From: an uncultured Gammaproteobacteria bacterium
GTDB lineage: Bacteria > Patescibacteriota > Microgenomatia > Levybacterales > UBA12049
NCBI GenBank assembly: GCA_964512695.1
Contig: CAZEJU010000005.1
Span: 5,668 to 69,667, forward strand
Reading direction: 5' to 3'
DNA: 64,000 nucleotides
Shown: piece after piece, positions 25,879 to 61,875 of the stretch
Position numbering within the stretch: the first letter of the stretch is position 1
Layout: every line of letters starts with the position of its first letter
The notes under the pieces: generated by a model
The model's input: only the letters and a program-made list of their open reading frames with translations
The model's database searches: none
What the model was told of the DNA's origin: nothing
Program-made: the position numbers and the translations under genes

Positions 25879-26967
25879 TCAGTCTTTTCCTATGGTAATA
25901 ACGATATCAAACTCAGCTGACTGAGTGGCTTCCTCTACTATTATAAGTGGAAAGTCACTTCTTAGCACATTCTGAATATCCTTAACTAATTCAGAAGAAA
26001 ACTGTTCGGAGTATGTGAGGGTTGTTTGATTTTCTAAAGCTCGTGCGTTGCCAATCGATATATTTTTATAACCACTAGCATTTAGAATTAAACCCATTTC
26101 TCCCGCCTGACCTTTAATACCAGAACCATTAAGTATCTGAATTTTAATCGCAGACTTATCGGGGGATTTTATGGTAGGACTTAGCAGAACAGTGGGTGAA
26201 AGTGTAAGAGTCACGTCAGATGTGGTTAAAGAAAGTTGTGGAGCATGATCTTGATCTTTAGCGAATGGATTCGTGACTAAATTACGCTGTATCAATGCGT
26301 AAATGGAAACTGCGACTAGTATTACCAAACCAATGACCAATGTAACATACTGATATTTTAAATTAGGCTTTGGAGTCTGTATGTTTAACTCTGATTCAAT
26401 ACCATCTGCTTCTTCTTTTGAAATCTTTTCAGCTTTTAAAAGATTGTATTTGTTTAGTACACTGCCGTTCTTCAGAATTCCTTTCGCATCAGTTACAGAA
26501 ATGCTTGAAACTTCTCTATTTGTTATTATGCTTAATGGTACAACTGCGCTAACACCAATATTTTTCACTTTCAAAGTTTCTATAACTACTTTGTAAAGAT
26601 CGCTATTTGCGGCTAAAAGTTCAATTTTTTTACCTTTTTTTACCGTTAATTTTGCTATTTTTGCTCTATTTATAGGAATGTATTGGTAAAAGCGTTTCTC
26701 ATTTTCTCCTTTTTTTTCAGAATCCTCTATCTCTTCTGAAAAAACAAACTGGTTGGAAAGAACAATAACAGCTTTTCCTTTAAGCTGGCTATTACTTATT
26801 ACCTCATTCAAACCCTGAGTAAAAAGTTTTTCATCTGAAAGTTCTCCATAGGTAACAGCGCCAGGAGGAAAAGTATACACGATAGTTTTCCCGGAAGGAG
26901 GTATAATCTGAAGAAGAGTCGTACTGATAAACACCAGGAATTTACCCTCTGGAAGGACCATATACAC
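25879..26967 (-). CDS. Bitopic membrane protein with a C-terminal LytR_C-like domain; architecture is cytoplasmic N-domain, then TM, then extracytoplasmic LytR_C
   Basis: TM helix (YVTLVIGLVILVAVSIYALI). C-terminal KIQILNGSGIKGQAGEMGLILNASGYKNISIGNA...TTLTYSEQF resembles the LytR cell-envelope-related C-terminal domain. Confidence 0.45.
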   Translation of the reverse strand: MYMVLPEGKFLVFISTTLLQIIPPSGKTIVYTFPPGAVTYGELSDEKLFTQGLNEVISNSQLKGKAVIVLSNQFVFSEEIEDSEKKGENEKRFYQYIPINRAKIAKLTVKKGKKIELLAANSDLYKVVIETLKVKNIGVSAVVPLSIITNREVSSISVTDAKGILKNGSVLNKYNLLKAEKISKEEADGIESELNIQTPKPNLKYQYVTLVIGLVILVAVSIYALIQRNLVTNPFAKDQDHAPQLSLTTSDVTLTLSPTVLLSPTIKSPDKSAIKIQILNGSGIKGQAGEMGLILNASGYKNISIGNARALENQTTLTYSEQFSSELVKDIQNVLRSDFPLIIVEEATQSAEFDIVITIGKD

Positions 26968-27000: not shown

Positions 27001-27504
27001 TTATCTTGAAGCAGATATTGTAGTTGAGCCTTCAGCTCTGCAAGCCGTTACAGTTACTATATTATTTGCATCAACAACAATCCCGTATCCTGTTGAGGTC
27101 GAACTCGACGACAGGCTTGGGTCGACAGGAATTGTTTTTAAGTATTTAACGAGCGGAGTCGCAAGATTTGTGCAGCTTGAAGCTGTGACACTGCATCCTC
27201 CTGTTGAAATTGCACATCCCGATGAAGCTGATCCAAGCTGGACTTGTGACATTCCGGTAGAAAGCCCCGACGGAAGAGAACCACCGTTATCTACTATATA
27301 AGCATGGACCGCAGTAAGGATCGTATTTACATCTGAGGTGCGTCGTGCGTTTCTCGCGTCTTGAAATCTTTGCGCTGGATTAAGTGCTACGAATACTACT
27401 ACGGCCAAAGTTGCTATAATAACTATTACGATTAAAAGTTCAATAAGAGTAAAACCTTCTTTGGAATTTTGGAGTTTGAATTTAAAATTTAAATATTTCT
27501 TCAT
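27001..27504 (-). CDS. Type IV pilin (class III signal peptide, probable major pilin)
   Basis: MKKYLNFKFKLQNSKEG|FTLIELLIVIVIIATLAVV is a prepilin cleavage/methylation motif (G-F-T-L-I-E). Start moved to the internal Met so the leader is 17 aa. The C-terminal region is Cys-containing. Confidence 0.75.
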   Translation of the reverse strand: MKKYLNFKFKLQNSKEGFTLIELLIVIVIIATLAVVVFVALNPAQRFQDARNARRTSDVNTILTAVHAYIVDNGGSLPSGLSTGMSQVQLGSASSGCAISTGGCSVTASSCTNLATPLVKYLKTIPVDPSLSSSSTSTGYGIVVDANNIVTVTACRAEGSTTISASR

Positions 27505-27560: not shown

Positions 27561-27944
27561 TTATATCTCTTTCCAACTTGAGATCGTCAAATAAGATCCT
27601 CCTCTGTTTACTACAGCCTGGACTGTTCTTCTGTAATCTGTCGCGGTAGTTGTGGTAGTAACTGTGTAATTAGATCCTGCTTGAGACACGGTTATGGTAC
27701 ATATTCCTTCAGGTCGAGATATTGTTCCACCTGCATAAGACGCGCTATTTCTAAGCTTTAAAAGCGCGTCTTCCATACACCCTTCTATAAAAACCAAAGC
27801 ACCTTCGCCTTTCGTAATCGCTAGTGAAACTTGTCCTTCACCTACACCAAGCTGAGCAACGGTTATCATAACACCCGAAATGACGACAGTTAATATGAGG
27901 ATAATTGATATCGCTACATATCCTTGTTCAGATTTTTTTTTCAT
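27561..27944 (-). CDS. PilX-like minor pilin (hydrophobic N-terminus without the canonical GFxxxE)
   Basis: 127 aa starting MKKKSEQGYVAISIILILTVVISGVMITVA, lying inside the prepilin gene cluster. Confidence 0.45.
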   Translation of the reverse strand: MKKKSEQGYVAISIILILTVVISGVMITVAQLGVGEGQVSLAITKGEGALVFIEGCMEDALLKLRNSASYAGGTISRPEGICTITVSQAGSNYTVTTTTTATDYRRTVQAVVNRGGSYLTISSWKEI

Positions 27945-27945
27945 A

Positions 27946-28494
27946 TTAATTACCCCTTAATTCAGCACTACTCTCAATAACCACTGAATCCTGATACTCC
28001 TGACGTGCAGCCACAAAAGAGGCTGCTACTGTCATTACAAACTGTATGTGTTTCGATTTATTGTCAACTGAGCTATAGTTTGTAAATGTTAGAAGTGTAA
28101 TAACAGTATTACTAGAGTTAATAGCTACTGCACTACCGACACCTTGTTTAATTCTTATATTCCCTCCTGATAAATCAATTACAGTCGGATTCGTCCCAGG
28201 CGTTGAAGTTGCAAGGGAAAGAGATGTTGCAGAAACAGAATTTATACCCGTAGCATTCCTAATCTCATATTTGATTCGTTCAGTAATATACCGTGCGTTC
28301 GCATTTACCTCTTGAGCAGTCGCACTTTTTACGCCTAATTCAACACTGTTCCAGGCAAAAGGAACAAGTGCAGATAAAATAATTGTTATTAAAGCAATGT
28401 ACAGAATAAGCTCGATTAAGGTAAAACCACGTTCATGTGAACTGAATGTGATAAAACCATTATTATTTTGTGAAATTATATGTAGACTTCGCAT
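27946..28494 (-). CDS. Prepilin-type minor pilin (PilW/pseudopilin-like)
   Basis: ERGFTLIELILYIALITIILSAL N-terminal methylation motif. Confidence 0.7.
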   Translation of the reverse strand: MRSLHIISQNNNGFITFSSHERGFTLIELILYIALITIILSALVPFAWNSVELGVKSATAQEVNANARYITERIKYEIRNATGINSVSATSLSLATSTPGTNPTVIDLSGGNIRIKQGVGSAVAINSSNTVITLLTFTNYSSVDNKSKHIQFVMTVAASFVAARQEYQDSVVIESSAELRGN

Positions 28495-28495
28495 A

Positions 28496-30004
28496 TTATT
28501 GTGGCTTAAGTATTAAAAACTCGGACGAACTATTTGTATCAGCGATAAATATACGATCATTGCTCGTATCATATACAACTTCTTTTGGAAAATTTACAAT
28601 ATTTAGTGATCCCAATGCCGGCAAACCTGGTAATGAATCTAGATTACTGCCATTGATAACTAAAAAATCATTTGTTGCCGAATTAGTTCCTAGAAAAAGT
28701 AGATTATTCCCAAAACTTATAGAGTTTACATCTGCTCCAATTTCAACAGTTGATTTAAGCAAAAGACTTGTTGGTGTGGAAACATCAATTGAGTAAAGTT
28801 CTGGCGCTCCGCTGGAAACTCTTCCCACCAAAATTCTATTCCCTCCGGCATTATAAATCGCAATCGCGTTTGCAGGATTGTTTCCGCTATCAAGATTAAA
28901 AATAGCATCACGCGCAAGCGTTGTAAGATTTATTACTTGTACTTCAGCAGCATTATCATCAGATGTAACAAACGCATAACTTCCTACAATAACTACCCCA
29001 GTAGGAGTTCCCGTTATTCCAGAACCAGTCCCGGTAATTGTGGGAGAAGCCGGATTTGAAATATTAAACTTAATAAACTCATTACCTCCATTCCTTACCA
29101 TATATAAAAAGTTTCCGGAAATCGCCAGAGCAATAGCATCAGCGTTATCATTACCACTGTTAACGACCGTTAAATTTACGGAATTCAACGTTGCAGTTGA
29201 AAGGCTTGTTGGAGAGCTAATATCTATAATCTGCAACTCCTGAGAGTTATTAGTTGATGCAATATATGCGTAATTACCATTAATAACAATATCATTTACG
29301 TCACCTCCAAGTTCGCGTTGGCAGTTTACACACATAGAGGGAACAGTAGTATTTGATACATCAATTGAAAAAAATTCAGTACCAACTGAACTAGCACGAC
29401 CTAAAAAAATATAGTTACCAGATCTTACAAGAGATATTCCATTAGCAGCATTTGCACCGCTATTTGCTAGTGTTAAATCGAAGCTCGAATCAAGAGATGG
29501 ACTTGCCCAATTTCCCACAATTGCCTTTCTCCAATCCGATAAATAACTTGAGAGGACAACAGAATTAGATCTTGTAGATGTAAAGTTCCAAGAAACTGTT
29601 GATGTAATTTTCTTAGTCAGAGGGTCAACAGTACCCCCACTTGTCACAATATTTCCGTTTCCATCCCTTGAAACATCAGATACTGTTATGACTCTCGTAT
29701 ACTTACTACTTAGAATATTATTGCTTCCTGAAAAACTCCAGACATTTCCCACTCTGGAAATACCTGTCCCAGGACTGTTTACCAAACTCGCAAAATTCTG
29801 GTTTTTAATTGAACGGGTTGCCTCAATACCTTCAGATGCATACTGTGTAGCTATGGTTTGCTCTTCTCCAAGCCTATTTGAGTCTAATCCTTGCAGCATA
29901 ACCATGACTGCACCAGATGCTAATATCATAAACAAAGCAGTAGCTATAATAACTTCAATAACCGAAAATCCCTTTTGGTGACACTCTTCAAAATATAATT
30001 TCAT
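28496..30004 (-). CDS. Large prepilin-headed protein with about 6 beta-propeller-type (LVIVD-like) repeats; candidate pilus tip adhesin (PilV/PilY1-like function)
   Basis: QKGFSVIEVIIATALFMILASGAVMV prepilin N-terminus, then repeated ~45-aa units (..ASTNNSQELQIIDIS.., ..RASSVGTEFFSIDVS.., ..RVSSGAPELYSIDVS.., ..TNSATNDFLVINGS.., ..DTNSSSEFLILKP). Confidence 0.6.
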   Translation of the reverse strand: MKLYFEECHQKGFSVIEVIIATALFMILASGAVMVMLQGLDSNRLGEEQTIATQYASEGIEATRSIKNQNFASLVNSPGTGISRVGNVWSFSGSNNILSSKYTRVITVSDVSRDGNGNIVTSGGTVDPLTKKITSTVSWNFTSTRSNSVVLSSYLSDWRKAIVGNWASPSLDSSFDLTLANSGANAANGISLVRSGNYIFLGRASSVGTEFFSIDVSNTTVPSMCVNCQRELGGDVNDIVINGNYAYIASTNNSQELQIIDISSPTSLSTATLNSVNLTVVNSGNDNADAIALAISGNFLYMVRNGGNEFIKFNISNPASPTITGTGSGITGTPTGVVIVGSYAFVTSDDNAAEVQVINLTTLARDAIFNLDSGNNPANAIAIYNAGGNRILVGRVSSGAPELYSIDVSTPTSLLLKSTVEIGADVNSISFGNNLLFLGTNSATNDFLVINGSNLDSLPGLPALGSLNIVNFPKEVVYDTSNDRIFIADTNSSSEFLILKPQ

Positions 30005-30438
30005 CTGCTAACTACTCCTTGAGAATTAATCACAAATTGTTTTGAGGTATCGTTACTAGTAATAGAGTATGTGCCTGTAGTGCTGGGTAAACCAGTAACT
30101 TTTGTAAAAACAACTTCAGTAAAGCCTGCAATAGATATATTGGAGTTGACCCTGAATGTTTCATCAAAAGCTGCATTGCGTGTAGCATACGAATTTCCTT
30201 GAAAAAGAGTTAAGGTATTTGATCCAAAACGCACTCCCCAATTACCGTTTTGCCTACCCATCATCGCATAGATTTGAGCTTTTCTCGCTTCTCCTAAGAA
30301 TTGATCCTGTACATTGGCTACAGCGTTTTGCGTCAAGAAACGGGAAAAGAAAACTACTGAGAATGTGCCAATAGAAATTATTATCGCGATAACTAAGAGT
30401 AATTCAATAATGGTAAAACCAGCAGCTTTTCTGTACAT
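30001..30438 (-). CDS. Prepilin-type minor pilin (GspH/FimT-like)
   Basis: MYRKAAGFTIIELLLVIAIIISIG motif. Start moved to the internal Met to remove the 68-nt overlap with pilC. Confidence 0.65.
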   Translation of the reverse strand: MYRKAAGFTIIELLLVIAIIISIGTFSVVFFSRFLTQNAVANVQDQFLGEARKAQIYAMMGRQNGNWGVRFGSNTLTLFQGNSYATRNAAFDETFRVNSNISIAGFTEVVFTKVTGLPSTTGTYSITSNDTSKQFVINSQGVVSR

Positions 30439-30448
30439 ATCATGACAC

Positions 30449-31534
30449 TTAGCGCTTGATACTACTACTAAACTGATAAATCGGTCCAATAATGGAAACT
30501 GCAATAAAGGCAACAATCAACCCTACTATTATTAATATTACTGGCTCAAGAATTGTTGAAAGATTCTTGGAAGTACTATCAACTTCATCTTCAAAATAAT
30601 CCCCTAAGTAACTGAATGTCTCGTCAAGTTTACCCGTTTTTTCTCCAACGCCCAGCATCCTGACTGCAATAAGCGGAAAAAAATTAAATTTTGAATGATC
30701 AAAAATGCTCTCAAGTGTTTTGCCTCTCTCTACCCCTTTTTGAATCCTGTCTATATATTCCCTGAAGATCATATTTTGCGTGGATTCTTTTTGAATTTCC
30801 AGTGCGCGTGTAATTGGGATTGAACTTTGAAGCAAAGTACCCATATTCCTGCAGATTGACGCAAGCTGTACATTTTGTATAAACGAACCAATTACAGGAA
30901 GGCTTAGCAAAAATCTATGCCATAAAGGTTTTGCAAATTTTTGGGAGATAGTTACTTTAAACGCGATCACACAAATACCTAAAAATGCGAAGATATAAAT
31001 CCCATAATTGTTCATTACGTTTGCAAACCAAAGAAGAATTCTTGTTGTTATCGGAAGCTCTACATCCAGGGAATTAAATAGGTCAACTAACTTTGGTAAA
31101 ACAAAAATACTCAAACCAATTGCGGCTGTAAACGCGACTAAAAGCACAATAGTTGGATAGAGTAATGCGCTCTTAATTTTTTGCGAGAACTCATGGGTCT
31201 TTCTTAAATGTGTTGCAAGGTAATCCAGATTCTTCTCAAGGTTTCCTGATTGTTCCCCGACTTTTATAAGCTGCACATAAAATGGATCAAAAAATTTTGG
31301 ATAAAAAGATAATGCCTTATCAAACTCTTGCCCATTTACAACTTCTTCGCGGATTTTATGCAAAACCTTTCTGAAATATACATTATTGTTCTGCCTAGAA
31401 ACTATTTCGATTGATTCAGCCAGGGGTATTCCACTTTTAAGCATAATGGAAAGGTGCTTCGTAAACGTCAGTCTTTCAACCGCACTGACACCTCCAAAGA
31501 TTACTATGTTATCAGACATCTTAGGCAGTTTCAT
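30449..31534 (-). CDS. pilC: Type IV pilus inner-membrane platform protein PilC (GspF family)
   Basis: Two T2SS_F repeats, 3 TM helices and the typical length of 361 aa. Adjacent to pilB. Confidence 0.85.
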   Translation of the reverse strand: MKLPKMSDNIVIFGGVSAVERLTFTKHLSIMLKSGIPLAESIEIVSRQNNNVYFRKVLHKIREEVVNGQEFDKALSFYPKFFDPFYVQLIKVGEQSGNLEKNLDYLATHLRKTHEFSQKIKSALLYPTIVLLVAFTAAIGLSIFVLPKLVDLFNSLDVELPITTRILLWFANVMNNYGIYIFAFLGICVIAFKVTISQKFAKPLWHRFLLSLPVIGSFIQNVQLASICRNMGTLLQSSIPITRALEIQKESTQNMIFREYIDRIQKGVERGKTLESIFDHSKFNFFPLIAVRMLGVGEKTGKLDETFSYLGDYFEDEVDSTSKNLSTILEPVILIIVGLIVAFIAVSIIGPIYQFSSSIKR

Positions 31535-31605: not shown

Positions 31606-33300
31606 CTACTCGCGCGTTGCACGTAATACTTCTTCAATAGTTGTTATTCCTTCAGCTATTTTTTCCAGACCGTCTTCGGCCATTTTTCTCATTCCTTCTT
31701 TTATCGCCATCTGTTCAATTGTGTCAGAATCTGCTTTTTGGACAATTAAAGCTCTGATTGCCTCATTCATTTCTAGAACTTCAAAGATACCTATTCTTCC
31801 CATGTACCCACTCATGTGGCAAACAGAACATCCTTTTCCTTTATATATCCTTATTGATGATTTACTTCCGTAAATTTTTCTGATCAAGTCACGGCTAAAA
31901 TCTTTTAGAAGTTCCGACAGCTCGATGTCTAGAGAATATTTACACTTCTCACAAATTTTACGAACCAAACGTTGCGCGATTACAACATTTATTGTCGATG
32001 CGACTAAAAACGGTTCTACTCCCATGTCAATAAACCTTGGAACCGCTGTCGCCGCGTCATTTGTATGCAGTGTAGAAAGGACAATATGTCCTGTTAAAGC
32101 AGAATTAATTGCAATGTCCGCAGTCTCATCATCTCTGATTTCACCAATATATATGATATTCGGGTCTTGCCTCAAAATTGAGCGCAATCCTTCCGCAAAT
32201 GTTAAATTAGTTTTTGCATTAACTTGAATCTGGTTTATACCCTCCACGTCATACTCAACGGGATCTTCAATTGTCGCGATATTTTTGTCAGGTGTGTTTA
32301 AAATTTTAAGAATTGCATACATAGTAGTTGTTTTACCGCTTCCAGTTGGCCCCGTGGACAATATCATACCGTACGGTTTATTCATGGCGTTAACCACTTT
32401 CTCATGGTCTTCTTTGCTCATTCCCAGATTAGATAAACTAAACTGCCTGAAATGTGAAGCTAAAAGCCTTAAAACAGCTTTCTCCCCATGAACTACCGGC
32501 ACCATTGAGACACGGATATCCAAATCTTCTTCAGGAAGTTGAACCTGTATCTTTCCATCCTGTGCTGAGGCATGCTCATCAGTTTGTAATGAAGCTAAAA
32601 CCTTAATCCTTAGAACCACCTGCTTATATACCTCCAAAGATAAGGTCAAAACTTCGTGCATAATCCCGTCAATCCTAAACCTTACCTGCGCGTTATCTTT
32701 TGCAGGCTCTATATGAATGTCAGACGCGTTATTCCTATATGCGTATTCGATAAGTAAATCCACTATTTTTATAATCGGTGCTTCATAGATTTTACCGTCT
32801 CCTAAAATATCAACTTGTTCAGCTAAAAGCGCATCGAATTTTTTTTGCAGATCTTTTTTATAGATTTTTAGCGATTGCTCAATATCACGCCGTATAGCAA
32901 AATATGGAATTACTTTTTTATTCACTTTGCGTTGGATAAATTCAAGCAATTTGAGGTTCGAGGTGTTCGCAAGTGCAATTTTAACATTATCTGGATTGTC
33001 TTGAAAAACGATAGCACTAAACTCTTTCGCGAGTTGCTCGGGTATTATATACGAGGCGCTATCAGGAATAGAAACAGTCTGAAGATTAATATACGGAACA
33101 TTAATCATATCTGCAATGATTCTGCCAAGCCCAACAGAATCTATTAAATCATGGTCGATAAGTGCTTCAGCAAACGATACATTTTCCTTCTCACATTCTG
33201 TAAATGTTTTGATCAGTTCTTTTTCTTCAATAACTTTCAGTTCTTTTAAAGAGTTCAATAAATCCTTGGCGAATGGTTCCATACTTTTTAATCGTATCAA
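31606..33300 (-). CDS. pilB: Type IV pilus assembly ATPase PilB (GspE family)
   Basis: N-terminal GSPII_E_N-like region, Walker A LSTGPTGSGKTTT, Asp box and His box, and a tetracysteine motif CEKCK...CSVCH. Confidence 0.9.
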   Translation of the reverse strand: MIRLKSMEPFAKDLLNSLKELKVIEEKELIKTFTECEKENVSFAEALIDHDLIDSVGLGRIIADMINVPYINLQTVSIPDSASYIIPEQLAKEFSAIVFQDNPDNVKIALANTSNLKLLEFIQRKVNKKVIPYFAIRRDIEQSLKIYKKDLQKKFDALLAEQVDILGDGKIYEAPIIKIVDLLIEYAYRNNASDIHIEPAKDNAQVRFRIDGIMHEVLTLSLEVYKQVVLRIKVLASLQTDEHASAQDGKIQVQLPEEDLDIRVSMVPVVHGEKAVLRLLASHFRQFSLSNLGMSKEDHEKVVNAMNKPYGMILSTGPTGSGKTTTMYAILKILNTPDKNIATIEDPVEYDVEGINQIQVNAKTNLTFAEGLRSILRQDPNIIYIGEIRDDETADIAINSALTGHIVLSTLHTNDAATAVPRFIDMGVEPFLVASTINVVIAQRLVRKICEKCKYSLDIELSELLKDFSRDLIRKIYGSKSSIRIYKGKGCSVCHMSGYMGRIGIFEVLEMNEAIRALIVQKADSDTIEQMAIKEGMRKMAEDGLEKIAEGITTIEEVLRATRE

Positions 33301-33407: not shown

Positions 33408-33716
33408 TTAAGTACCAATCACGGTATTAATCTTTGTAATTACATCATTGATTGATAGGTCTGATTTTATTATATAATCACGCGCTCCTAATTTCATTCC
33501 ACGATCAATATCTTCTTTTTGCCCTAAATTTGAAGCAATAATAACAGGAATCCTTTTCCAGTCCGGATTATTTTGAATTTCTTCTAAAACCGTAAACCCG
33601 TCTTTTTTAGGCATCATAAGATCCAGTAACATAACATCTGGGACAAATGTTTTGAGCGTATCAATTGCCTCCTGGCCGTCTGCTACTAATGTAACATCAA
33701 ACCCTTCCTTTGCCAT
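33408..33716 (-). CDS. CheY-like receiver domain protein lacking a canonical AUG-initiated N-terminus (see findings)
   Basis: Receiver motifs are present (VMLLDLMMPKKDG; conserved K in ASNLG). In-frame codons upstream of the ATG encode PIIKNITAEDDKFLANAYRVK, i.e. the missing beta1-DD segment, with no ATG/GTG/TTG before the upstream stop. Confidence 0.6.
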   Translation of the reverse strand: MAKEGFDVTLVADGQEAIDTLKTFVPDVMLLDLMMPKKDGFTVLEEIQNNPDWKRIPVIIASNLGQKEDIDRGMKLGARDYIIKSDLSINDVITKINTVIGT

Positions 33717-33927
33717 TTTTACGCGATATGCATTAGCGAGGAATTTATCATCTTCAGCTGTTATATTTTTTATAATTGGCTAAAAGCTTTATCGGATGAT
33801 GCAATTTTTACTTCCTAAACCTGATGTACTTCTTATGGAAAATATAGACATCGGTTTTCTATCAGCTTTTTTCGCATTTCCATAAATTTATTCTTTCAAG
33901 TTTTACAGTCCTAACACTCTTAAAGTG

Positions 33928-34308
33928 TTATAAGTAGCTTTTAACCTCTTCTGCTATTGCTGACAAACTTGCATCTGATTTGACCAGAAAATCTATGGCT
34001 CCCATTTCTTTCGCCATTTTTTTATCTTCTTCTTGCGATAAATTCGAAGTGATAATTACTTTTGTGTTTATCCCTTTTTCACGAATAACTGATAGTACCT
34101 CCCAACCATCAATACCAGGCATCATGATATCTAAAAGGACTAAGGAATAAGTCCCTGATTGCAATTCCTTTAATCCTTCCTCACCGCTGAAGACCACGTG
34201 AGCAGTAATGCCCCCTTTTTGAAGCTTTATCTCCATCGCTTTTCCCATTGCTTTTTCGTCCTCAATAATAAGAACTTTTTTTGTATTGTTACTATTTACA
34301 CTTTCCAA
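33928..34308 (-). CDS. Single-domain response regulator (CheY-like receiver)
   Basis: KKVLIIEDEKAMGKA..., LVLLDIMMPGIDGWEV, conserved K (SNLSQ..K). 126 aa. Confidence 0.8.
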   Translation of the reverse strand: MESVNSNNTKKVLIIEDEKAMGKAMEIKLQKGGITAHVVFSGEEGLKELQSGTYSLVLLDIMMPGIDGWEVLSVIREKGINTKVIITSNLSQEEDKKMAKEMGAIDFLVKSDASLSAIAEEVKSYL

Positions 34309-34359
34309 ACTGTAATATTCACCCTCTTTCTTTTTATATTTTCTCTTCTGTTTGAGAAT

Positions 34360-34782
34360 TTAATAGAGCTGCACTTCTTTATCTTGCAAATCAAAAATCC
34401 CATTTAATTTTTCAACTATTTCTTCTAGGGAATTTTCTGATTTAACAAGATAATAAGACGGCTGGTCGGTTACTACATGAGTTAACCTTTCGTCATTTGT
34501 ATCAAAATTCGTAAGAATAACCACTGAAGCATATTTACCCCATTTATTCTCACGTAACTTATGTAACATAGTCAGACCATCCATTTTGGGCATTTCAATA
34601 TCCAGTAAAATTGCGTTCGGATGATTTTTTAATGCAGCATCCAGCCCAGTTGCTCCGTCCCCAGCTTCTAAAACTAAAAACCCTAAGCTTTCTAGTTTCA
34701 CGGCAATTGCTTGCCTAAGAGAGGCATCATCTTCAATGATAAGAATGGACTTACTCGTTTCCAAATTATTTTGATTTGCCAT
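34360..34782 (-). CDS. Single-domain response regulator (CheY-like receiver)
   Basis: KSILIIEDDASLRQA..., ILLDIEMPKMDGLTML. 140 aa. Confidence 0.8.
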   Translation of the reverse strand: MANQNNLETSKSILIIEDDASLRQAIAVKLESLGFLVLEAGDGATGLDAALKNHPNAILLDIEMPKMDGLTMLHKLRENKWGKYASVVILTNFDTNDERLTHVVTDQPSYYLVKSENSLEEIVEKLNGIFDLQDKEVQLY

Positions 34783-35170
34783 ATAAGCATTCTTTTAGAG
34801 CCTCAACTATTTGATCTAAGCGAAAATTCGCCTTAACAAAGTACTTATTCACCCCCAGCTGCATATACATTCTCACTTTTTCTTCGCTTGCCGTATTACT
34901 TACAACAAAAATTGGAATATGTTTCCATTTTGAATCAGAACTTTTGATTTTTGTAACCAAATCTAATCCGTCATCTTTACCTAACAAATAGTGGTCTAAC
35001 CAAATTCCATCCACCTGACTAAGTTCTTCCAAATAAGACATGGCTTGTTGTACACTTCTTGCGGTAGCCACATTAATATTGTTATTCTCAAGCTTTATCT
35101 TAATCACTTCTAACAATGGAATTTCATCCTCAATAACTAAAATCGTTTTTGTCTCCATAAAGATAGTCAC
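34766..35170 (-). CDS. Single-domain response regulator (CheY-like receiver)
   Basis: KTILVIEDEIPLLEV..., IWLDHYLLGKDDGLDLV. 134 aa, overlapping the next receiver gene by 17 nt. Confidence 0.75.
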   Translation of the reverse strand: MTIFMETKTILVIEDEIPLLEVIKIKLENNNINVATARSVQQAMSYLEELSQVDGIWLDHYLLGKDDGLDLVTKIKSSDSKWKHIPIFVVSNTASEEKVRMYMQLGVNKYFVKANFRLDQIVEALKECLYGKSK

Positions 35171-35179
35171 CTCCTTCCT

Positions 35180-37381
35180 TCATTTTAATCTTCTATTACC
35201 GTCTTTCTTCACCATTCCAGAAAGAGGCAATAACACAAAAAACGTTGTACCTTTATTTTCTTCCGAATAAAACCATATTTTACCTCGGCAATGATCTATC
35301 AATGATTTTACAAGATACAATCCTAACCCAGTTCCATCAGTATTTTGTACTCTGACATTATCTGCCCTAAAAAGTTTTTCGAAAACTTTTCCTTGTTGCA
35401 TGGTGGTTATTCCGATACCATTATCCTCAACTTCTATAAGAAGACTATTCTCTTCTGCTTTTACCCCACCAACTGCTTCTTCCTGCTGGATAGTTTTTAA
35501 AGAGATTTTTATTTCTCCGTTTTCATTGGTGTATTTGATTGAATTTGTAAGCAAGTTCTGGAGTATGATTGTAGTTAAGTTAGGATCAAGCATGATTTGG
35601 GGCATATCATCTTTCTCGAGGACTACTCTTAATTTTTTCTCATCTATCATAGGCTTTGACTCATCCAGGATAGAACGGGTTAATCTCACAATATCAACCA
35701 TTTCAGGTTCAATCATGTAATTGCCTGTTTCAATTCTCGACACATTCAGTAGTGCATTTACCAGCTTTGACAGGCGCTGACTTCCTTGATAGGCTTCCTG
35801 GATAAACTTTTTTTGCTCATCTGTTACATTACCTGCATCTCCAGATAAAAGAAGTTCACAATACCAATTGATAGTTGAGAGAGGCGTACGCAGCTGATGA
35901 GATGCTAAAGAGATAAATTCTGACTTAGCCCTGTCTATTTGCTTTTCTCTCGTAACATCATGCAGAACAGTAACCGTGCCCAATAGTTTATTCCTCAGTA
36001 GAATGGGAGTAATCGTAACTAATACCGCAATCTTTTCTCCATTTTTTTTGGTATAGATCACTGCACTGCTGATCTTCTCTTTACGGGATAGCACTTTATT
36101 TATAATTCTTTCCGCAGGAGGTATGACTCTTCCATTTTCATCTTCCGCCTTAATAGCTTCAATTAATTTTCTCTCTACCAGATCCTGTGGGGTATATCCT
36201 AATAACTCTTCTATTGCTTGATTTATCCTCACAATTTGTCCCTTCTCATCTGTGACGATCAGTCCGTCCCCAATACTTGATATAAGAACTTCATCATATA
36301 TGCGTTCTTCCTCAAGATGGGTTATATCCTCTTCTGTCCCTATAAAGCCAATTATCCTATCTTCCTTTTTTATGGGTGAAATATGGGTAATCACGGTGTA
36401 ATATTCACCATTTTTTCGTCTATTCTGTAGCTCCCCATCAAATCCTTCACCTGCTCGTATTGTTTGCCATAGTTTTTGGTACAAGTCTTGAGTCATAATA
36501 CCACCCCATAAGCGAGGCGTATTATTTTTCATCTCCTCAAAACTAAAACCTGTCATTTGCTGAGCTTTTTTATTTGCAAAAACAACAAACCCGTTTACAT
36601 CAGTTATCACAACGTGATTGCGGGAGTCTTGAATTGCTTGCAACATAATATTCTTCTCTGTTTGTTCATTATTAAAATCAGATTCTGTTAAAATAGTATC
36701 ATTTATTCTTGGATAGTGTTCCTCAAAACGCATGTTCTGAAAAGGAGTATTTCTGCGGGCTAGAAGCACATATGTCTCATCAATAAACCCCTGCGGACCA
36801 CAAATAAAGAAAAGATCCTCCGCAAAATTGATTCCTGATGGAAAAAGTTCATTTGATATTTTTCCAATATGGTTTACAAATACGATATTTTGCTGTGCAG
36901 TTATCCTGGAAAGCTCTTCTGAGAAAGCGCTTTTTTCAGAAGCTGAGTTAACATACATAAGTGTTAAATTTGGATTCATCTCTTCCTGGAGAGAGTTAAT
37001 AATTGAAAGAAATGGTGCAATCCCGACTCCGCCTGCGATCATAACTATATTTTGTTTTTGATTTTTAAGTGAATAGGAACTCCCAAATGGACCGAGTATT
37101 TTTACCCTACTTTGAAGTGGAAGTTCTAAAAGCGTTTTTATATATCCTGAATCTGAATTGCGAAAAAGAATAGAGCAGGATTTTTTATTCAAAGAACTGG
37201 AGATAATAGAGAAAGCTCTTCTCCCTCCTTTTAGATCCGGGTATAAAAGCTCGGACACAATTACCCAGACATATTGACCGGGAGAAAAACTAAAATCTTG
37301 TTCAAAGAAGAAGGTAATGACTGTCGTGTCTTTTGCAACTGTTTTCTTTTCCTGAATTGTCGCCCACATTTCATTACTCAT
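35180..37381 (-). CDS. Hybrid sensor histidine kinase: N-terminal ferredoxin-NADP-reductase-like FAD/NAD(P)-binding oxidoreductase module, then 2 PAS domains, HisKA and HATPase_c
   Basis: FNR-family motifs RRAFSIISS (RxYS FAD site), MIAGGVGIAPFLSII (GGxGxxP NAD site) and FFICGPQGF. Two PAS-like segments. H-box ASHQLRTPLSTI, N-box LLTNSIKYT, G1 VEDNGIGI, G2 GTGLGLYLVKSL. Confidence 0.8.
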   Translation of the reverse strand: MSNEMWATIQEKKTVAKDTTVITFFFEQDFSFSPGQYVWVIVSELLYPDLKGGRRAFSIISSSLNKKSCSILFRNSDSGYIKTLLELPLQSRVKILGPFGSSYSLKNQKQNIVMIAGGVGIAPFLSIINSLQEEMNPNLTLMYVNSASEKSAFSEELSRITAQQNIVFVNHIGKISNELFPSGINFAEDLFFICGPQGFIDETYVLLARRNTPFQNMRFEEHYPRINDTILTESDFNNEQTEKNIMLQAIQDSRNHVVITDVNGFVVFANKKAQQMTGFSFEEMKNNTPRLWGGIMTQDLYQKLWQTIRAGEGFDGELQNRRKNGEYYTVITHISPIKKEDRIIGFIGTEEDITHLEEERIYDEVLISSIGDGLIVTDEKGQIVRINQAIEELLGYTPQDLVERKLIEAIKAEDENGRVIPPAERIINKVLSRKEKISSAVIYTKKNGEKIAVLVTITPILLRNKLLGTVTVLHDVTREKQIDRAKSEFISLASHQLRTPLSTINWYCELLLSGDAGNVTDEQKKFIQEAYQGSQRLSKLVNALLNVSRIETGNYMIEPEMVDIVRLTRSILDESKPMIDEKKLRVVLEKDDMPQIMLDPNLTTIILQNLLTNSIKYTNENGEIKISLKTIQQEEAVGGVKAEENSLLIEVEDNGIGITTMQQGKVFEKLFRADNVRVQNTDGTGLGLYLVKSLIDHCRGKIWFYSEENKGTTFFVLLPLSGMVKKDGNRRLK

Positions 37382-50597: not shown

Positions 50598-52442
50598 TTA
50601 CTTAGGCACACACTGAAGATTCACGAGTTGGAGAGCTTTGCTTGAACTTGATACAGAAGGCTGCCTACATTCATACGCACTGCCTACAGGACCTGGAGGA
50701 ACATTCGTAGGAACAATTGGTTGTTGGTCTTCTCCGTCATGGATACCTATGGAAAGTGTCTGCTCATTTTGGTCTTCTGTAATCTCAAAAGGATCTGATA
50801 AAGCAGCCACTTTACCGCCTATCCGGACAATAATTCTATAATGACCAGGTACAATAATTAAATAACAATATCCATCACTACTTGTCGTTGCTGTAGGGGA
50901 ATACATCCTTTTTGGAAATATAGTGAACTCGGCACCCGATACACCTTTTTCACCTGCGTCGGCTTGTCCATTTTTATTAGCATCAGAAAAAACGAAACAT
51001 CGAAACCGAACTACAAGCCGACGTGGACGTTGGGTAGGTGTAGGAGGAATCTGGGTTACCGTCGCTGTAGGCTGAGGGGTAACTGTTAGCGTCGCTGAAG
51101 GCCTTGGAGTCAATGTCGGAGTGCTACCAGGCGGAGGCGTAGTTGTAGCTGTCGGTACAGGTGTGTTAGTAACAGTCACACCTCCACAAGCAGGATCATC
51201 TAATATTTTTTTCATATTTAAACGCTTTCCGCCTAAAGAAGTATCTATAGGATCTCCATTACGCACAAGACAATCTAGAACCTGATCTGGTGTTAATGAT
51301 TTCTGTGAGAGTAATAAGGCCACAGCCCCCGCTACATGCGGAGATGCCATAGATGTTCCTTGCAGGCTTTTATATCCTCCTCCCTTATACGTAGACACTA
51401 TAGTAGTACCTGGAGCCCCGATCTCTACTTTAGATCCATAGTTAGAAAATGATGCTCTCCTGTCATTCTGATCTGTAGCACCTACAGTAATAACTCCATT
51501 ACATGAAGCAGGTGTAAATGCACCAGCATCTGTCCCATCATTCCCCGCAGCTACAACAACTACTGTCCCCTGGCTACGAGCATAATTTACAGCATTTTGA
51601 TAAACGGACGCACACGGACCCCGTCCTCCCAAACTCATGTTTATTACTTTTGCACCATTTTTTGCAGCCCACTCAATACCTCTACTAATACCCGATGAAG
51701 GACCAGAACCATTATCTCCCAATACTTGAACAGCCATTAACCTAACATCCCAATTAATACCGCTTACCCCAGTAGAATTATTTGTCAAAGCACCAACTGT
51801 ACCTGAGACATGTGTCCCATGTCCTTGTCTGTCAATAGGATCTCCGTCAGCAGATGTGAAATCCGGACCTTTTATAATGTCCCTTGGTAAATCTGGATGA
51901 TTATAATCTACTCCAGTATCTAATATTGCCGCTATAATAGCTTTTCCACCAGTAGTTTTATCCCAAGCTTCCTCTAAACCAATTTTTTTATAATGCCACT
52001 GTTGTGCATAATATTGATCATTCGGCAACTTCGTAGCCTTAACTATTACATCTACCTCGACAGATTTAATTTCTTCATAGTCTATTATTATATTTCCAAC
52101 TTTCTCTAAATCTGTTCCTTTTTTAAATTCTAAAATATAGAAATTTTTTAATTGTGCGTCATCGCCATTGAATAATTTTTTATGTCCAATAACTCCTATA
52201 TTATTAAATTTTTGTTTTATTACTTCTGGACTCTTACCTTCTACAAATTCTACAAGGAGTCTGTCAGAGACATACTCTACTCCCTCAGCGATAAAAAAAG
52301 TTTTTCTGGGTACTTTCTTTCCTGTCTGTGCCAATGAAGTTACTAATAACACTAAAATACTAAAAGCTACCAATATGAATATAATTATCCACTTTTTATT
52401 TAAAGTCTGCAGTTTAGACATATCTATTTCATTGTTACACAT
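50598..52442 (-). CDS. Subtilisin-like serine protease (peptidase S8) with an N-terminal anchor/signal, an I9 propeptide and a C-terminal PT-linker plus extension domain
   Basis: Catalytic triad motifs AILDTGVDYNHPDL (D), HGTHVSGTVGA (H) and GTSMASPHVAGAVAL (S). PT-rich linker TNTPVPTATTTPPPGSTPTLTPRPS. Confidence 0.85.
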   Translation of the reverse strand: MCNNEIDMSKLQTLNKKWIIIFILVAFSILVLLVTSLAQTGKKVPRKTFFIAEGVEYVSDRLLVEFVEGKSPEVIKQKFNNIGVIGHKKLFNGDDAQLKNFYILEFKKGTDLEKVGNIIIDYEEIKSVEVDVIVKATKLPNDQYYAQQWHYKKIGLEEAWDKTTGGKAIIAAILDTGVDYNHPDLPRDIIKGPDFTSADGDPIDRQGHGTHVSGTVGALTNNSTGVSGINWDVRLMAVQVLGDNGSGPSSGISRGIEWAAKNGAKVINMSLGGRGPCASVYQNAVNYARSQGTVVVVAAGNDGTDAGAFTPASCNGVITVGATDQNDRRASFSNYGSKVEIGAPGTTIVSTYKGGGYKSLQGTSMASPHVAGAVALLLSQKSLTPDQVLDCLVRNGDPIDTSLGGKRLNMKKILDDPACGGVTVTNTPVPTATTTPPPGSTPTLTPRPSATLTVTPQPTATVTQIPPTPTQRPRRLVVRFRCFVFSDANKNGQADAGEKGVSGAEFTIFPKRMYSPTATTSSDGYCYLIIVPGHYRIIVRIGGKVAALSDPFEITEDQNEQTLSIGIHDGEDQQPIVPTNVPPGPVGSAYECRQPSVSSSSKALQLVNLQCVPK

Positions 52443-52465
52443 GTATAAATGTTTTGTAAAGTTTG

Positions 52466-53944
52466 CTAGTTACGTGGTGTACAAATGAGATTAATCATCT
52501 GCAAAGCTTTCTTATTCGCCGTTCCTGGAGGCAAGATGCATTGATAACCAGGGTCACCCGGTAGCCCAACTACCGGTGTAAGCGTAGGAGTTGCTAAAGG
52601 AGTCGGAGTAGGAGTTGCTCTACTGACAGTACATGCGGAATCACTAACAAGTCTTTCTACGTTTAACCGTTTTCCGATTGGCTTATCTGTTGAAATAGAA
52701 TCTGCATTTCTTACTATGCAATCTTCTACTTGCTGTGGAGTAAGATACGGATTAAGAGAAAGTAATAATGCTGCTGCTCCTGTTACATGGGGAGCAGCCA
52801 TGGATGTTCCTTCCCACTCAAAATATTTTAACCCACCTAATGATCGTGATCTTGTCGAATAAGTCGAGTATATTTTTACTCCCGGTGCTGCTACGTCTAC
52901 GACAGAACCGAAATTAGAGAACGAAGCACGTTCATCAGATTGTGTACTCGCACCTACCGTTATGACATTATTACAATTAGCAGGCACCTGACCCGCTGCA
53001 TCTTCACCATCATTTCCTGCAGATACCACCACTATAACATTCTTTCGAATAGCATAATCAATCGCATCCTGAAAGAGACTTAAGCATCGTTCTTTGTACC
53101 CCAAACTTAAATTAAGTACTCGTGCGCCATTATCCACTGCATAATTCATTCCACGCGCCACTTCAAGCTTACTACCACTACCATTCCAGTAAAGGACCTG
53201 AACTGCCATCAAACGAATATTCCAATTCATTCCTGTTACTCCTTTACCATTATTTGCTACAGCACCTATGACACCTGCTAAGTGAGTACCATGACCGTTC
53301 TCGTCCATAGAGTCTCTATCCCCACTATTCCAGCTCGTATCTTCACCGTTAATTATGTCACTCGGTAGGTCTTCATGAGTATAATCTATTCCTGTATCCA
53401 GTACAGCAACTATGATATTCTTTGATCCAGTAGCTATATCCCATGCATCTTCCATTCCTATCTTTGACATATTCCATAAACGAGATCCATAAGAGGGATC
53501 GTTGGGAGATATATCTATTTTAATAACTGCATCGCCTTCTATAGTTTCTATCTCTTCCATTTTTTCAAGCTGCTTCCCAGCTTGTTCTAAAGTAACTCCT
53601 TTGGCTAAAAATAGCGCATAATAATTCTTCATAGGACCATCTATATCTTTATATACCCTCTCCTGTTTCTCGACTCCAGCATCAAGAAGCTTTTGAAGAA
53701 CACTTTTCTTTTTCGCAGTTTCCATGATATCGTCTGGACTATAACCTTCTTTAAAACGAACTAGTAGCCTATCAGGGATATATTTTGTACCCTGCTCAAG
53801 TTTCAAAAGCTTTTTATGGGAATTTTGATTTTTAGTATCAGAAGAAACAATCGTAGATACATAAATAACAAAACAAAAAATAAGAATTAAAAAAATAAAA
53901 AAGATTAACCGTTTTGATTGTAATAACTGCAATATTTGTTCCAT
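52466..53944 (-). CDS. Subtilisin-like serine protease (peptidase S8), tandem paralogue of the 50598..52442 gene
   Basis: AVLDTGIDYTHEDL, HGTHLAGVIGA, GTSMAAPHVTGAAAL. The C-terminal motif is shared with the paralogue (KALQ.(I/V)NL.C.P). Confidence 0.85.
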   Translation of the reverse strand: MEQILQLLQSKRLIFFIFLILIFCFVIYVSTIVSSDTKNQNSHKKLLKLEQGTKYIPDRLLVRFKEGYSPDDIMETAKKKSVLQKLLDAGVEKQERVYKDIDGPMKNYYALFLAKGVTLEQAGKQLEKMEEIETIEGDAVIKIDISPNDPSYGSRLWNMSKIGMEDAWDIATGSKNIIVAVLDTGIDYTHEDLPSDIINGEDTSWNSGDRDSMDENGHGTHLAGVIGAVANNGKGVTGMNWNIRLMAVQVLYWNGSGSKLEVARGMNYAVDNGARVLNLSLGYKERCLSLFQDAIDYAIRKNVIVVVSAGNDGEDAAGQVPANCNNVITVGASTQSDERASFSNFGSVVDVAAPGVKIYSTYSTRSRSLGGLKYFEWEGTSMAAPHVTGAAALLLSLNPYLTPQQVEDCIVRNADSISTDKPIGKRLNVERLVSDSACTVSRATPTPTPLATPTLTPVVGLPGDPGYQCILPPGTANKKALQMINLICTPRN

Positions 53945-53972
53945 GATATACCCATCAGCTTATTGCTTTCAA

Positions 53973-56900
53973 TTATTTAGTTGAAGTCGTTGGCACTGCC
54001 ATGGTTTGATTTTGTTGGACATTATTTTGGGAAACTGGAATCTGAACACTAGTAGAATCATTTTTTTCTATTTCTCCTAAAACAAATTTTCCAGCTTCTA
54101 ATTTAGATGTAAGATAAGCTTTTGTTTCCAAAAGACTAAACCCTCCTAAAAGAATCAAAGGTAGTACAGAAGACAATCTTTGTATTCCTGCATTTACATC
54201 ACTTTTATTTTCTGAACTTAAAAGACCGAGTATTTCATTTATTATATTTATATCTCCTAAAATCCATGTTTTTCTATCAACGCCAGTTGGAGGTTCATTT
54301 AGTTGATAATGTTCTATCCACTCTTTTTTTACAGCTTCATAATCTTCTATACTTACTTGTTGAAGCTGATTCGTCGAGGGGAGAAAGATATGCTCTGGGT
54401 TATTTATATCTTTTGTTTTTGCCATTTGTTCAGAAGCATGTAAGAGAGCATCTGCTGTCGAGTTTCCTTGGTTTTTATCCTGAATAAGTTTCTCATGTAC
54501 TTCTTTTATTTTTTCTTTTTGATTTTCTAAAACAGTCTGATCAGGTTCTGACAATGAAATAAGAATGTTTTTTAATTTTTCAAGTTCATTCTTCTCAGCA
54601 GTTTTTGATGTTACTGTTGCATAATCAAACCGTGCTATATCTCGCATTGACGGAATTGACATATTAATCATTGTTACATAGACGTTCTCAGGTGCTTTTT
54701 GAGGTTTTGAAGCAGCTAATGAATCAAGCGATGAAGATTCAATATCATCTTCTTCAGGTAAGTTTACTGCTTGTGCTTGAGCTTTTTCAGCATGTTGGGA
54801 ATTTGTGGAAGTTTTAACCGTAACTAATGTGTCTTCTTCTTCCTCCTTTACCCTTATTTCCTCAAGTACGGTTTTACCTGCTTCACTCTTTGCACGTAAA
54901 TACGCTACAATCTCATCTTTTGTGAATCCCCCGAGTAATAAGAAAGGTAAAATATTTCCAACCTGTTCCATTCCTTGTTCAATCTGTGCAGGATTATCCG
55001 AACTCAACAACGTCATAATCTCGTTAATTTGAGCAATATCTCCCTCGATCGTTTTCTTCTTGTTTAAAGAACTCTCTTCTTCCATATTCTTATAATTCTC
55101 TACCCACATCTTTTTAACTGCTTCATAATCTTCTAAACTGACTTGCTGTATTCTATTATTCTGCGGAAGTATAGTCGCTGAAGGAGTAATAATAGTTGCT
55201 TGTGCGGCAACTATTGTCAGCATATCGACAGCGAGTAAATCTCCTTTTTCCTTTGCTTCAACGAGTTTTTCTTTAATTGTTTGCATTTCTTGAGGCGTGG
55301 CTCTGTTTCCTGACACATCTAATATTCCTGAAAGTAGAAAACTAGCAAGTTGGCTTCCTTGTTTTTGAGCTTCAATTAATTTATCTTTTACCTTTGTGAA
55401 TCTGTCTTTCTCTTTAACCTCTGTTAGGATAGAAGGATTATCCAATTTCATTAAAGTCGTTTGTAAAGCACCCGTATCTACTTGAGTGATAGCCTTAGAT
55501 AAAATAGAGTTTGCAGCTTTATCGCCATTGAGACTTGCTTCTATTAATTTTTCTTTAATATCTCTTAACTGTTCACCTTTTAAGGTAGTTGTATCTTTAT
55601 TGGAAGAAAGCTCTTTTGTTGAAGAGAGAATCGTAGTCGCCAGTTCATTGCCTTGTTGACTTTCTTTTATAAGAACTTCTCTTAGTTCTTTTAATTTTTC
55701 TTTTTCTTGAGAAGACTCAACTTTTTCTGGATTAGCAATTTGTGTCAGAACATTATTAATTCCGCTATTGATCTGGTGATTCATGTTCATAATGTTAGAA
55801 TTTGAGGCTATATTAGCCGCGTGAAGAATGGAATTTGCTACATTATTACCCTGCTGACTAGTTTGAACTAATCTATCACGAATCTTCGTAATTCTCTCTC
55901 TGTCTAGGGTATTCGTAACAATTGTAGGATTTGCTACCTGGATCAAAGTCTCACGCATGCGGGTCACCTCAGATTGACTACGCGTATCGCTAGATCTACT
56001 TAATGTCTCATATTTAGCGATATCGCGAATTGTAGGAATAGAAAGGTTGGTCAAATTCAGCAGCTCATTATTTACAAAGTTTTGTCTTAACAAGTCTTGG
56101 TTTACCTGCTGAGTAGATGAATTAACATTCGCAATCGGAAGCTGCAAAGCTTGACCTGCACCTTTTGGAAGTTCAGGAATCGCATATTGTTTAAAAGGTA
56201 AACGCGCTGTTCCAGTAGGCTGAGATGGAGGACCCACAGGAGGAATTGCAGGAGGAGGTGTTACACGATTACGAACTATATTAAGTACCTGTTGCATTCC
56301 AGCTCCCTCAGTTGTGAAAAAAGACCAAGCATGATCAAGAAATATTCGTAATAATATCCATGGCACAAGAATAACCATCCATAACATTACTAATGCAACA
56401 AGATATAGAGCAAAAGTATCAGGGTTATTAATACTGTTATCGAGTGCTACTTGTTGCCCAGGCCCTCCTAGAAGAATGTTAATCGAAGTAGGGAATACGA
56501 TTCTTGATTGAGGACTATCCAGATTAAATTGCATAGGAATACGTGTTCTCCATAAAGCAACTAATCCGGCAAGGAAAATTGAAAAAAGTGGACCATATAA
56601 AAGCCACCGAAAGAATTCTCCTACCCAAATCTTCGCAGTATTACGTAATGGATAGTAGAACAATAAAAGAGGGAAAACAGGTGAAACAATAATAAAAAAC
56701 CATAAGATAACCTTTCGGATAATAAGGGTAATAACCATTGTGTAATATGTTAAAGCTGTTATTTTTACGAAAAGTAAAGACATAAAAGCAGATTCAGCAT
56801 TCATATCACCTGATTTTCGAAGACCGAAGAATGGACCATACTGCCAACCTACATACAATAAATCAGTCTGGGAAATACACGTAGGAGGACAAGAACGGTT

Positions 56901-57353: not shown

Positions 57354-57606
57354 AAAAAGAAGTTATATATCAATTAAAGGTGATATGAGAAGTATTGTCA
57401 AATAAATTTTGCTACACATGAGTCGCATTACTACTAATTATCGTACAGTTGATTTATAATTTAATGAATGAACAATACAGTACATATTATATCCTCTTTA
57501 GCTAAAGAAGTCGGACAATTGTTACTGCTGAAAGTAAAGCAAATGTATACCACATAATTAATTAGTATAACAAAGTTGAGGCTATAGATGTGGTATAATC
57601 ATCATT

Positions 57607-59439: not shown

Positions 59440-59523
59440 AAGTTTAACGTGCGAAGTCTAAAACTAATCTGACTGTAATAACTATAACTTTTCACAATTA
59501 ACTTTTAACTTTAAAATTTCTTT

Positions 59524-61860: not shown

Positions 61861-61875
61861 GAACAATCATGAAAT

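Follow-up and report, generated by a model that had tools for sequence, protein, structure and literature searches.

The gene at positions 28496-30004 (minus strand) of a 64,000-nucleotide window from contig CAZEJU010000005.1 (positions 5,668 to 69,667; assembly GCA_964512695.1) encodes a 502-amino-acid protein in which a canonical prepilin signal, an alpha-1 helix, a small sheet and a seven-bladed LVIVD propeller are joined in one conserved polypeptide. We read this protein, the target of our analysis, as a modular minor pilin of a type IV pilus of Patescibacteria, which are ultrasmall bacteria that live as obligate or near-obligate partners of other microbes, and on balance we think it probable that the propeller is a ligand-binding module displayed at the pilus tip. 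Tip display and adhesion would follow by analogy with studied pili, and "candidate tip adhesin" is the best-supported function. A preliminary description, made from the nucleotide sequence, had already proposed such an adhesin.

A prepilin signal, a pilin head and a seven-bladed propeller in one polypeptide

The open reading frame (ORF) starts with ATG, ends with a stop codon at 28496-28498 that is included in the coordinates, and is free of internal stops over its 502 codons, as the preliminary description had it. An identical protein product is annotated on an independent public contig. The start codon shares the sequence ATGA with the stop codon of the preceding pilin gene, a ribosome-binding site, AAGGAG, lies 10 nucleotides upstream, and the start of the downstream pilin gene lies 1 nucleotide past the stop. 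Because of the ATGA overlap and the 1-nucleotide junction, we consider the gene to be translationally coupled in an operon.

The protein opens with a class III leader peptide, amino acids 1-12 (MKLYFEECHQKG; 29969-30004, minus strand), which is predicted to be removed by prepilin peptidase after G12, between MKLYFEECHQKG and FSVIEVIIATALFMILASGAV. Residues 10-21 read QKGFSVIEVIIA, and cleavage at G12 would leave the mature N terminus F1-S-V-I-E5. The signal is of class III: its short leader has Gly as the last residue, and the hydrophobic stretch of about 20 residues that comes next has Glu at position +5. The Pfam N_methyl model matches amino acids 9-32 above its cutoff (E = 9e-6, 25.5 bits; cutoff 21.2). 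The signal and the prepilin methylation motif reported earlier are thus both real, with G-1, F1 and E5 all present. E17 is at least 90% conserved in the full-length alignment and invariant in the alignment of heads. The mature N terminus (F1, E5) and the long alpha-1 helix, amino acids 13-69 (29798-29968, minus strand), form the polymerisation interface.

An AlphaFold2 model of the whole protein, built from an alignment of 49 full-length homologues, has a mean predicted local distance difference test score (pLDDT) of 90.5. It consists of a helix at 15-69, a small antiparallel sheet at 77-156 and 28 strands at 170-500 that make up seven four-stranded blades. The pLDDT is 84-95 across the helix and pilin-sheet region, and confidence is kept across the head-propeller junction; the N-terminal helix and pilin head therefore run directly into the propeller, the structural continuity for which the preliminary description had called. 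The globular sheet of the pilin, amino acids 70-165 (29510-29797, minus strand), belongs to the conserved carrier head and ends at a W158-[RK]-x-x-I junction. One acidic and glycine-rich loop of this sheet, DVxRDxxGNIVxSGGTxD (amino acids 110-127; 29624-29677, minus strand), is conserved, with D110, D114, G117, N118 and D127 invariant or nearly so in close heads; the loop may be a metal-binding site.

The propeller occupies amino acids 166-502 (28499-29509, minus strand). The match to Pfam LVIVD (PF08309) lies far beyond chance (E = 2.6e-19, 68.7 bits; cutoff 20.2). The preliminary description had counted about six LVIVD-like repeats of about 45 amino acids; the repeat family was recognised correctly, and the number, from the AlphaFold2 model and the repeat register, is seven, each of about 44-54 amino acids. 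Blades start near residues 189, 236, 289, 334, 380, 426 and 473, and the register is strand A, a GN turn, strand B, xxNxxE, strand C, ISxPxxP and strand D. In the model, the N-terminal strand 170-175 probably completes blade 7. A Foldseek comparison with the PDB gave more than 1,000 matches at E <= 0.001, the best being seven-bladed WD40-type propellers (beta-TrCP, YncE and RACK1; E about 1e-10, target-normalised template modelling scores 0.6-0.77), in agreement with the seven blades and 28 strands of the model. A search of the PDB by sequence with the whole protein returned no significant match, and a viral fold library yielded generic propellers only, some of them within phage tail or fibre proteins. 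We conclude that the propeller resembles the generic WD40/YncE type and that its family is of the LVIVD/choice-of-anchor-B kind; the model for choice-of-anchor B proteins, TIGR04312, scores 40.8 bits against a cutoff of 100 bits, so that the target is related to that family and not a member of it. The preliminary description had compared the protein with PilY1-type propeller adhesins; its propeller is LVIVD/WD40-like and not of the PilY1 type.

Few propeller residues are invariant, and these (the Glu that precedes strand C, for example) occupy positions that serve the structure of the repeat. This bears on the idea that the propeller is an enzyme or another non-adhesive effector, delivering for instance a glycan- or cell-wall-modifying activity on the pilus. 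Modular pilins with predicted peptidase modules do exist, propellers include lactonases and lyases, some homologues weakly match Lactonase and 6-phosphogluconolactonase models, and two related operons (L003 and L007) add a secreted Vgb_lyase-like propeller fused to Peptidase_M23. The target itself, however, has no significant match to any catalytic family, and the confinement of its invariant residues to positions that serve the repeat fold speaks against an active site, so we give an enzymatic role little credence.

The fusion of head and propeller is widely conserved. A word-indexed search found dozens of full-length homologues with 30-81% identity, and an exhaustive search of 1.84 billion protein-cluster representatives gave 9,103 matches at E <= 1e-3 and 488 at E <= 1e-30. 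Among the best 150 of these representatives, 131 combine the pilin head with LVIVD; their lengths cluster at 400-500 amino acids (one propeller) and 900-1,000 amino acids (two propellers), with a maximum of 1,998. The same 150 include 11 giant non-pilin LVIVD proteins and eight heads without LVIVD. A search for homologues, which the preliminary description had suggested as a check, hence shows the fusion to be conserved in hundreds of proteins. The closest relatives belong to Patescibacteria: Levy-, Davies-, Gottesman- and Woesebacteria, WWE3, Saccharibacteria, Peregrinibacteria and others. A scan for related loci with the single protein as the query gave no confirmed relative; with the head alignment as the query, the same operon order was found in 56 Patescibacteria genomes. 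Propellers borne on pili, of which the target is an example, thus form a very common class in this group. Several of the loci with a Patescibacteria-type pilus operon (L002, L005, L008, L017, L018 and others) are titled "uncultured Gammaproteobacteria bacterium", a label that is probably wrong for them.

The preliminary description had itself named a gene-model error that merges two reading frames, here a small pilin gene and a separate propeller gene, as something that would undo its proposal. Head-only genes of 150-206 amino acids do occur at the same slot in some genomes, but the continuous frame, the identical protein on an independent contig, the same fusion in 131 of the best 150 representatives and the confidently modelled junction rule this artefact out, and we see virtually no chance that it is correct.

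The putative I slot of a pilus operon

The target belongs to a co-directional operon on the minus strand. The operon begins with a PilB/GspE assembly ATPase (31606-33300; Pfam T2SSE, E = 1e-130, with MshEN) and a PilC/GspF platform protein (30449-31534; Pfam T2SSF, E = 3e-59). Four minor pilin genes follow, of which the target is the second. The first encodes a GspH/ComGD-like protein of 145 amino acids, counted from an internal ATG (H slot; 30001-30438); the longest frame reaches 30516, and orthologues are about 145 amino acids long. Downstream of the target lie a ComGF/HpsC-like protein (by NCBIfam) of 182 amino acids with the motif GFTLIE and an invariant E28 (J slot; 27946-28494) and a pilin-like protein of 127 amino acids with a hydrophobic N terminus, G-YVAIS, that lacks Glu5 (K slot; 27561-27944). 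The next gene encodes the probable major pilin, which is GspG/ComGC-like and 167 amino acids long from an internal ATG (KEG-FTLIE; 27001-27504; N_methyl, E = 1.5e-7); the longest frame extends to 27576, and the protein is annotated as 167 amino acids on the public contig. A 362-amino-acid membrane protein with a C-terminal LytR_C domain (25879-26967; Pfam, E = 3.7e-9) is encoded by the last gene. With its class III signal, the helix-on-sheet fold of the model and a co-encoded ATPase, platform protein and other pilins, the target bears the marks of a type IV pilin.

For the assignment of slots, homologue families from the 56 related genomes were scanned against NCBIfam; all matches fall below curated cutoffs and are to be read as a pattern. 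The H-slot family matches GspH in 44 of 49 members and ComGD in 42 of 49, and the J-slot family matches ComGF and HpsC in 29 of 51 members each. In the target family, 21 of 49 members match ComGE, 12 PilV, 11 XpsI, seven GspI, four GspJ and three XpsH; the target protein alone scores 18.1 bits against PilV (cutoff 52.2) and 17.6 bits against ComGE (cutoff 49). The K-slot protein has essentially no NCBIfam family match, and its 44 homologues have no conserved Glu near the N terminus. The target is thus the second gene of an H-I-J-K set whose K subunit is without Glu5. Gene order and match pattern together reproduce H-I-J-K (ComGD-E-F-G), and we place the target in the I slot with moderate confidence. 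In studied systems, assembly is nucleated by the HIJK complex, which comes to lie at the tip of the filament with the K subunit, the one without Glu5, as its cap.

The same order raises the question of a Com-like DNA-uptake filament, whose propeller would capture extracellular DNA rather than a cell surface. The minor pilins stand in the order ComGD-ComGE-ComGF-ComGG, and ComG models are the most frequent matches; the Foldseek matches include E. coli YncE at ranks 22, 25 and 32, one of them a DNA complex; Patescibacteria generally rely on scavenged nucleotides; and DNA uptake has been suggested for the essential pilus of TM7x. Nevertheless, YncE is matched no better than dozens of unrelated propellers, neither ComEA nor ComEC was found among the window ORFs scanned, and the unrelated folds that close relatives carry at this slot suit a variable ligand better than DNA. 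DNA capture is therefore, in our judgement, an unlikely function.

The composition of the operon also bears on whether the target merely primes a short pseudopilus or stays in the membrane, its head serving as an export and anchor device like that of "choice-of-anchor" passengers. The choice-of-anchor B model, which describes a propeller with various anchors, matches 48 of the 49 family members (NCBIfam, below cutoff), giant non-pilin LVIVD surface proteins exist, and no PilT was found among the window ORFs scanned. The operon, on the other hand, holds a probable major pilin and a full HIJK-like set, and Patescibacteria make real pili whose function is affected by a module-bearing minor pilin. 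We regard a purely anchoring head as improbable and prefer a module-bearing pilin of a true filament.

In the LytR_C protein, a single transmembrane helix connects a cytoplasmic N-domain with the extracellular LytR_C domain, and synteny of its gene extends to more than 25 related loci. As no PilM, PilN or PilO was recognised, this protein may take the place of the alignment proteins. Directly upstream of pilB on the same strand (33408-37381, minus strand) lie four stand-alone response-regulator ORFs and one kinase that combines an FNR-like FAD/NAD domain with PAS domains, HisKA and HATPase; these may regulate the pilus operon. The remainder of the window resembles a small fermentative genome. 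The stretch at 50598-62601 encodes two S8 subtilases (50598-53944), a 1,126-amino-acid protein with no Pfam match (53973-57353), a 778-amino-acid protein with a Baseplate_J-like region (59524-61860) and a sortase (61876-62601).

Exchangeable modules and a candidate role at the pilus tip

About 60 proteins have a head 55-77% identical to that of the target and a C terminus unrelated to it. Heads within this range bear at least seven unrelated classes of tail, or no tail. When the tails of 174 head-bearing proteins were clustered, 84 proved to be LVIVD and 75 a W-rich tail of about 430 amino acids; a short Cys-rich class and four rarer classes were also present, and six proteins, from genes of 150-206 amino acids, were tail-less. 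Every tail class is found at the same operon slot across the 56 genomes. In loci L003-L031, the head is conserved to the same degree as PilB and PilC (55-75% identity to the window) and the LVIVD tail is undetectable. Among 71 LVIVD-bearing homologues, the identities of head and tail to the query are weakly correlated (Spearman 0.26) and can be strongly discordant in either direction: P0021 has a head 78% and a tail 35% identical to the query, P0018 a head of 34% and a tail of 53%. The junction is sharp and falls directly after the conserved W158-[RK]-x-x-I. To judge from these sequence comparisons, the head (amino acids 1-165) and the propeller evolve separately. Since unrelated tails sit on related heads, the head would be a carrier and the C terminus an exchangeable cassette.

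The W-rich tail, with repeated WDG and WNGxxW motifs and no Pfam match, is the commonest alternative module on this head; it is found in loci L003-L031 (e.g., L003:7983-9785) and in P0046, P0049, P0052 and P0057. In two loci (L003:9808-11460 and L007:9845-11506), an extra gene separates the module-bearing pilin from the minor pilin that comes next. Its 550-amino-acid product has a Sec-type N terminus, a Vgb_lyase-like propeller (E = 5e-99) and Peptidase_M23; this product may be secreted and act on cell walls as a partner of the pilus. In some genomes it is instead the K-slot protein that is enlarged, to 290-515 amino acids (L011:9648-11072, L030:10312-11859, L042:4149-5594 and L019:9966-10838), or the H-slot pilin, to 289-429 amino acids (L009:6640-7929 and L011:6785-7918), so that other minor pilins of the operon can receive modules as well. 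An Amesbacteria locus (L034:10640-13257) has five tandem major-pilin paralogues of 171-173 amino acids each after the minor pilins. At L043:4687-8130, the longest head-containing ORF opens with an in-frame 23S_rRNA_IVP domain upstream of the head, a fusion that is probably an artefact of choosing the longest ORF.

We propose the following sequence of events. After cleavage by prepilin peptidase behind G12, the head would join an initiation complex of the HIJK type, seated on the PilC platform, as its I (GspI/PilV/ComGE) subunit. Together with the H, J and K subunits, the target would prime PilB-driven polymerisation of the major pilin, and the initiation complex would be carried to the distal tip, because pili grow from the base. 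There the propeller, of about 35 kDa, would bind a ligand on a partner cell or substrate, probably a glycan or a protein. The head would be the conserved carrier and the C-terminal module an exchangeable specificity cassette, of which the LVIVD propeller is one of several. Turnover of the cassette is more easily reconciled with a determinant of specificity than with a ligand common to all. Patescibacteria are generally thought to be without an outer membrane and secretin, so nothing obvious would limit the size of a tip module; no secretin was found among the window ORFs of at least 140 amino acids, a result that covers the window and not the remaining genome.

Several observations weigh against a propeller displayed at the tip by an I-type head. 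The predicted template modelling score of the AlphaFold2 model, 0.72, leaves the orientation of the head relative to the propeller uncertain. Matches to GspI, PilV and ComGE, all below curated cutoffs, fall mostly on the N-terminal helix; a profile of the head found no match in the PDB, and a head-only AlphaFold2 model from an alignment of 16 sequences reached a pLDDT of 44, too low to support an I-class fold. Conservation differs little between the loops of the top and bottom faces of the propeller (0.53-0.62), so that neither is a clear binding face, and we know of no ligand for LVIVD propellers. Neither a prepilin peptidase (Peptidase_A24) nor PilT was found among the window ORFs of at least 140 amino acids.

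A bolder version of the proposal is that the I-slot pilin works like a phage receptor-binding protein, its cassette being swapped by recombination near W158-[RK]-x-x-I and setting the range of hosts or surfaces to which the cell attaches. We put this forward tentatively, as a possibility that we would rather doubt than assert. If true, host range would generally be set by a recombining determinant on the I subunit, whereas in studied systems another subunit is known to carry effectors. By the comparison of loci, this one operon slot is a hot spot of binding-module exchange, and it gives concrete candidate host-recognition proteins in Patescibacteria.

Comparison with known systems

The definition of modular pilins comes from Raynaud et al. 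(2021; PMC8179133), with an InterPro survey of 1,219 proteins, and about 30 of the 1,219 in its Dataset S1 have IPR012902-IPR013211 architectures, IPR013211 being the LVIVD repeat. One entry is a Falkowbacteria protein with 12 copies of a "motif of unknown function" (PMC8179133). The target fits the definition, as it joins a pilin module to a separate domain that is not pilus-specific and its head occurs with other modules or with none. The rarity implied by the preliminary description was therefore overstated: LVIVD modular pilins were listed in 2021, and in Patescibacteria this operon slot is as a rule occupied by a large minor pilin that bears a module.

Like GspI, PilV and ComGE, the target is the product of the second minor pilin gene, and matches to these families, though weak, are the commonest pilin-class matches there. 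Known I subunits, however, are the smallest minor pilins and have no added domain, whereas the target carries a propeller. The first description of the repeat itself came from surface proteins of archaea and bacteria (PMC2447325), and LVIVD was earlier modelled on a propeller template (PMC8078820). LVIVD and choice-of-anchor B surface proteins share this repeat family with the target and differ from it in their anchor, which is a C-terminal sorting signal in their case and an N-terminal pilin in the target.

PilY1/PilC of diderm type IVa pili likewise places a beta-propeller at the tip with the minor-pilin complex, and the role of the target would be analogous. PilY1 is nevertheless not a pilin; it has a Sec-type signal and docks non-covalently, whereas the target has a class III signal and a pilin head. 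Membership of the PilY1 family was ruled out: the model of its propeller (Neisseria_PilC/PilY1, IPR008707) gave no Pfam match even at E <= 1, and no PilY1 chain is among the 50 best PDB fold matches from Foldseek. The target plausibly works like PilY1, by this analogy, though it is not a family member.

Closer in architecture are PilB (vWA module) and PilC (lectin module) of Streptococcus sanguinis, modular pilins whose adhesive role has experimental support and that were modelled at the tip with the I-like PilA (PMC8179133; PMC9934059, Shahin et al., 2023). They share with the target a pilin module, a short linker and a bulky functional module, a monoderm-type pilus without secretin and a proposed place at the tip. 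Their modules are vWA and lectin domains, whereas the target is predicted to have a seven-bladed LVIVD propeller. A second difference is that the I-like PilA bears no module there, whereas the I-type subunit appears to be the carrier here.

The Saccharibacteria offer PilX2 of Nanosynbacter lyticus TM7x, a minor pilin whose seven-bladed propeller is of the RCC1 family (PMC11623550). Deletion of pilX2 roughly halved host binding while pili were still formed, and the authors noted that pilin C termini diversify across Patescibacteria (PMC11623550). PilX2 and the target are thus both Patescibacteria minor pilins with a C-terminal seven-bladed propeller and both candidate tip adhesins. The propeller of PilX2 is RCC1, whereas that of the target is LVIVD, with no RCC1 Pfam match at E <= 1; PilX2 has no predicted PilD signal, whereas the target has a canonical class III signal; and PilX2 comes from a pilin-only locus, whereas the target lies in a PilB-PilC operon. 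Of the pilus tip adhesin originally proposed, membership of a pilus operon has been established, and adhesion is best supported by analogy with characterised modular pilins and with PilX2 of TM7x.

The target reveals no new principle, as both modular pilins and a Patescibacteria pilin that bears a propeller have already been published. It differs from the published cases in its LVIVD family, its canonical class III signal and the I-type subunit that apparently serves as carrier. Less charted than any of these is the systematic swapping of modules on a conserved I-slot head, which could mark determinants of host range in episymbionts.

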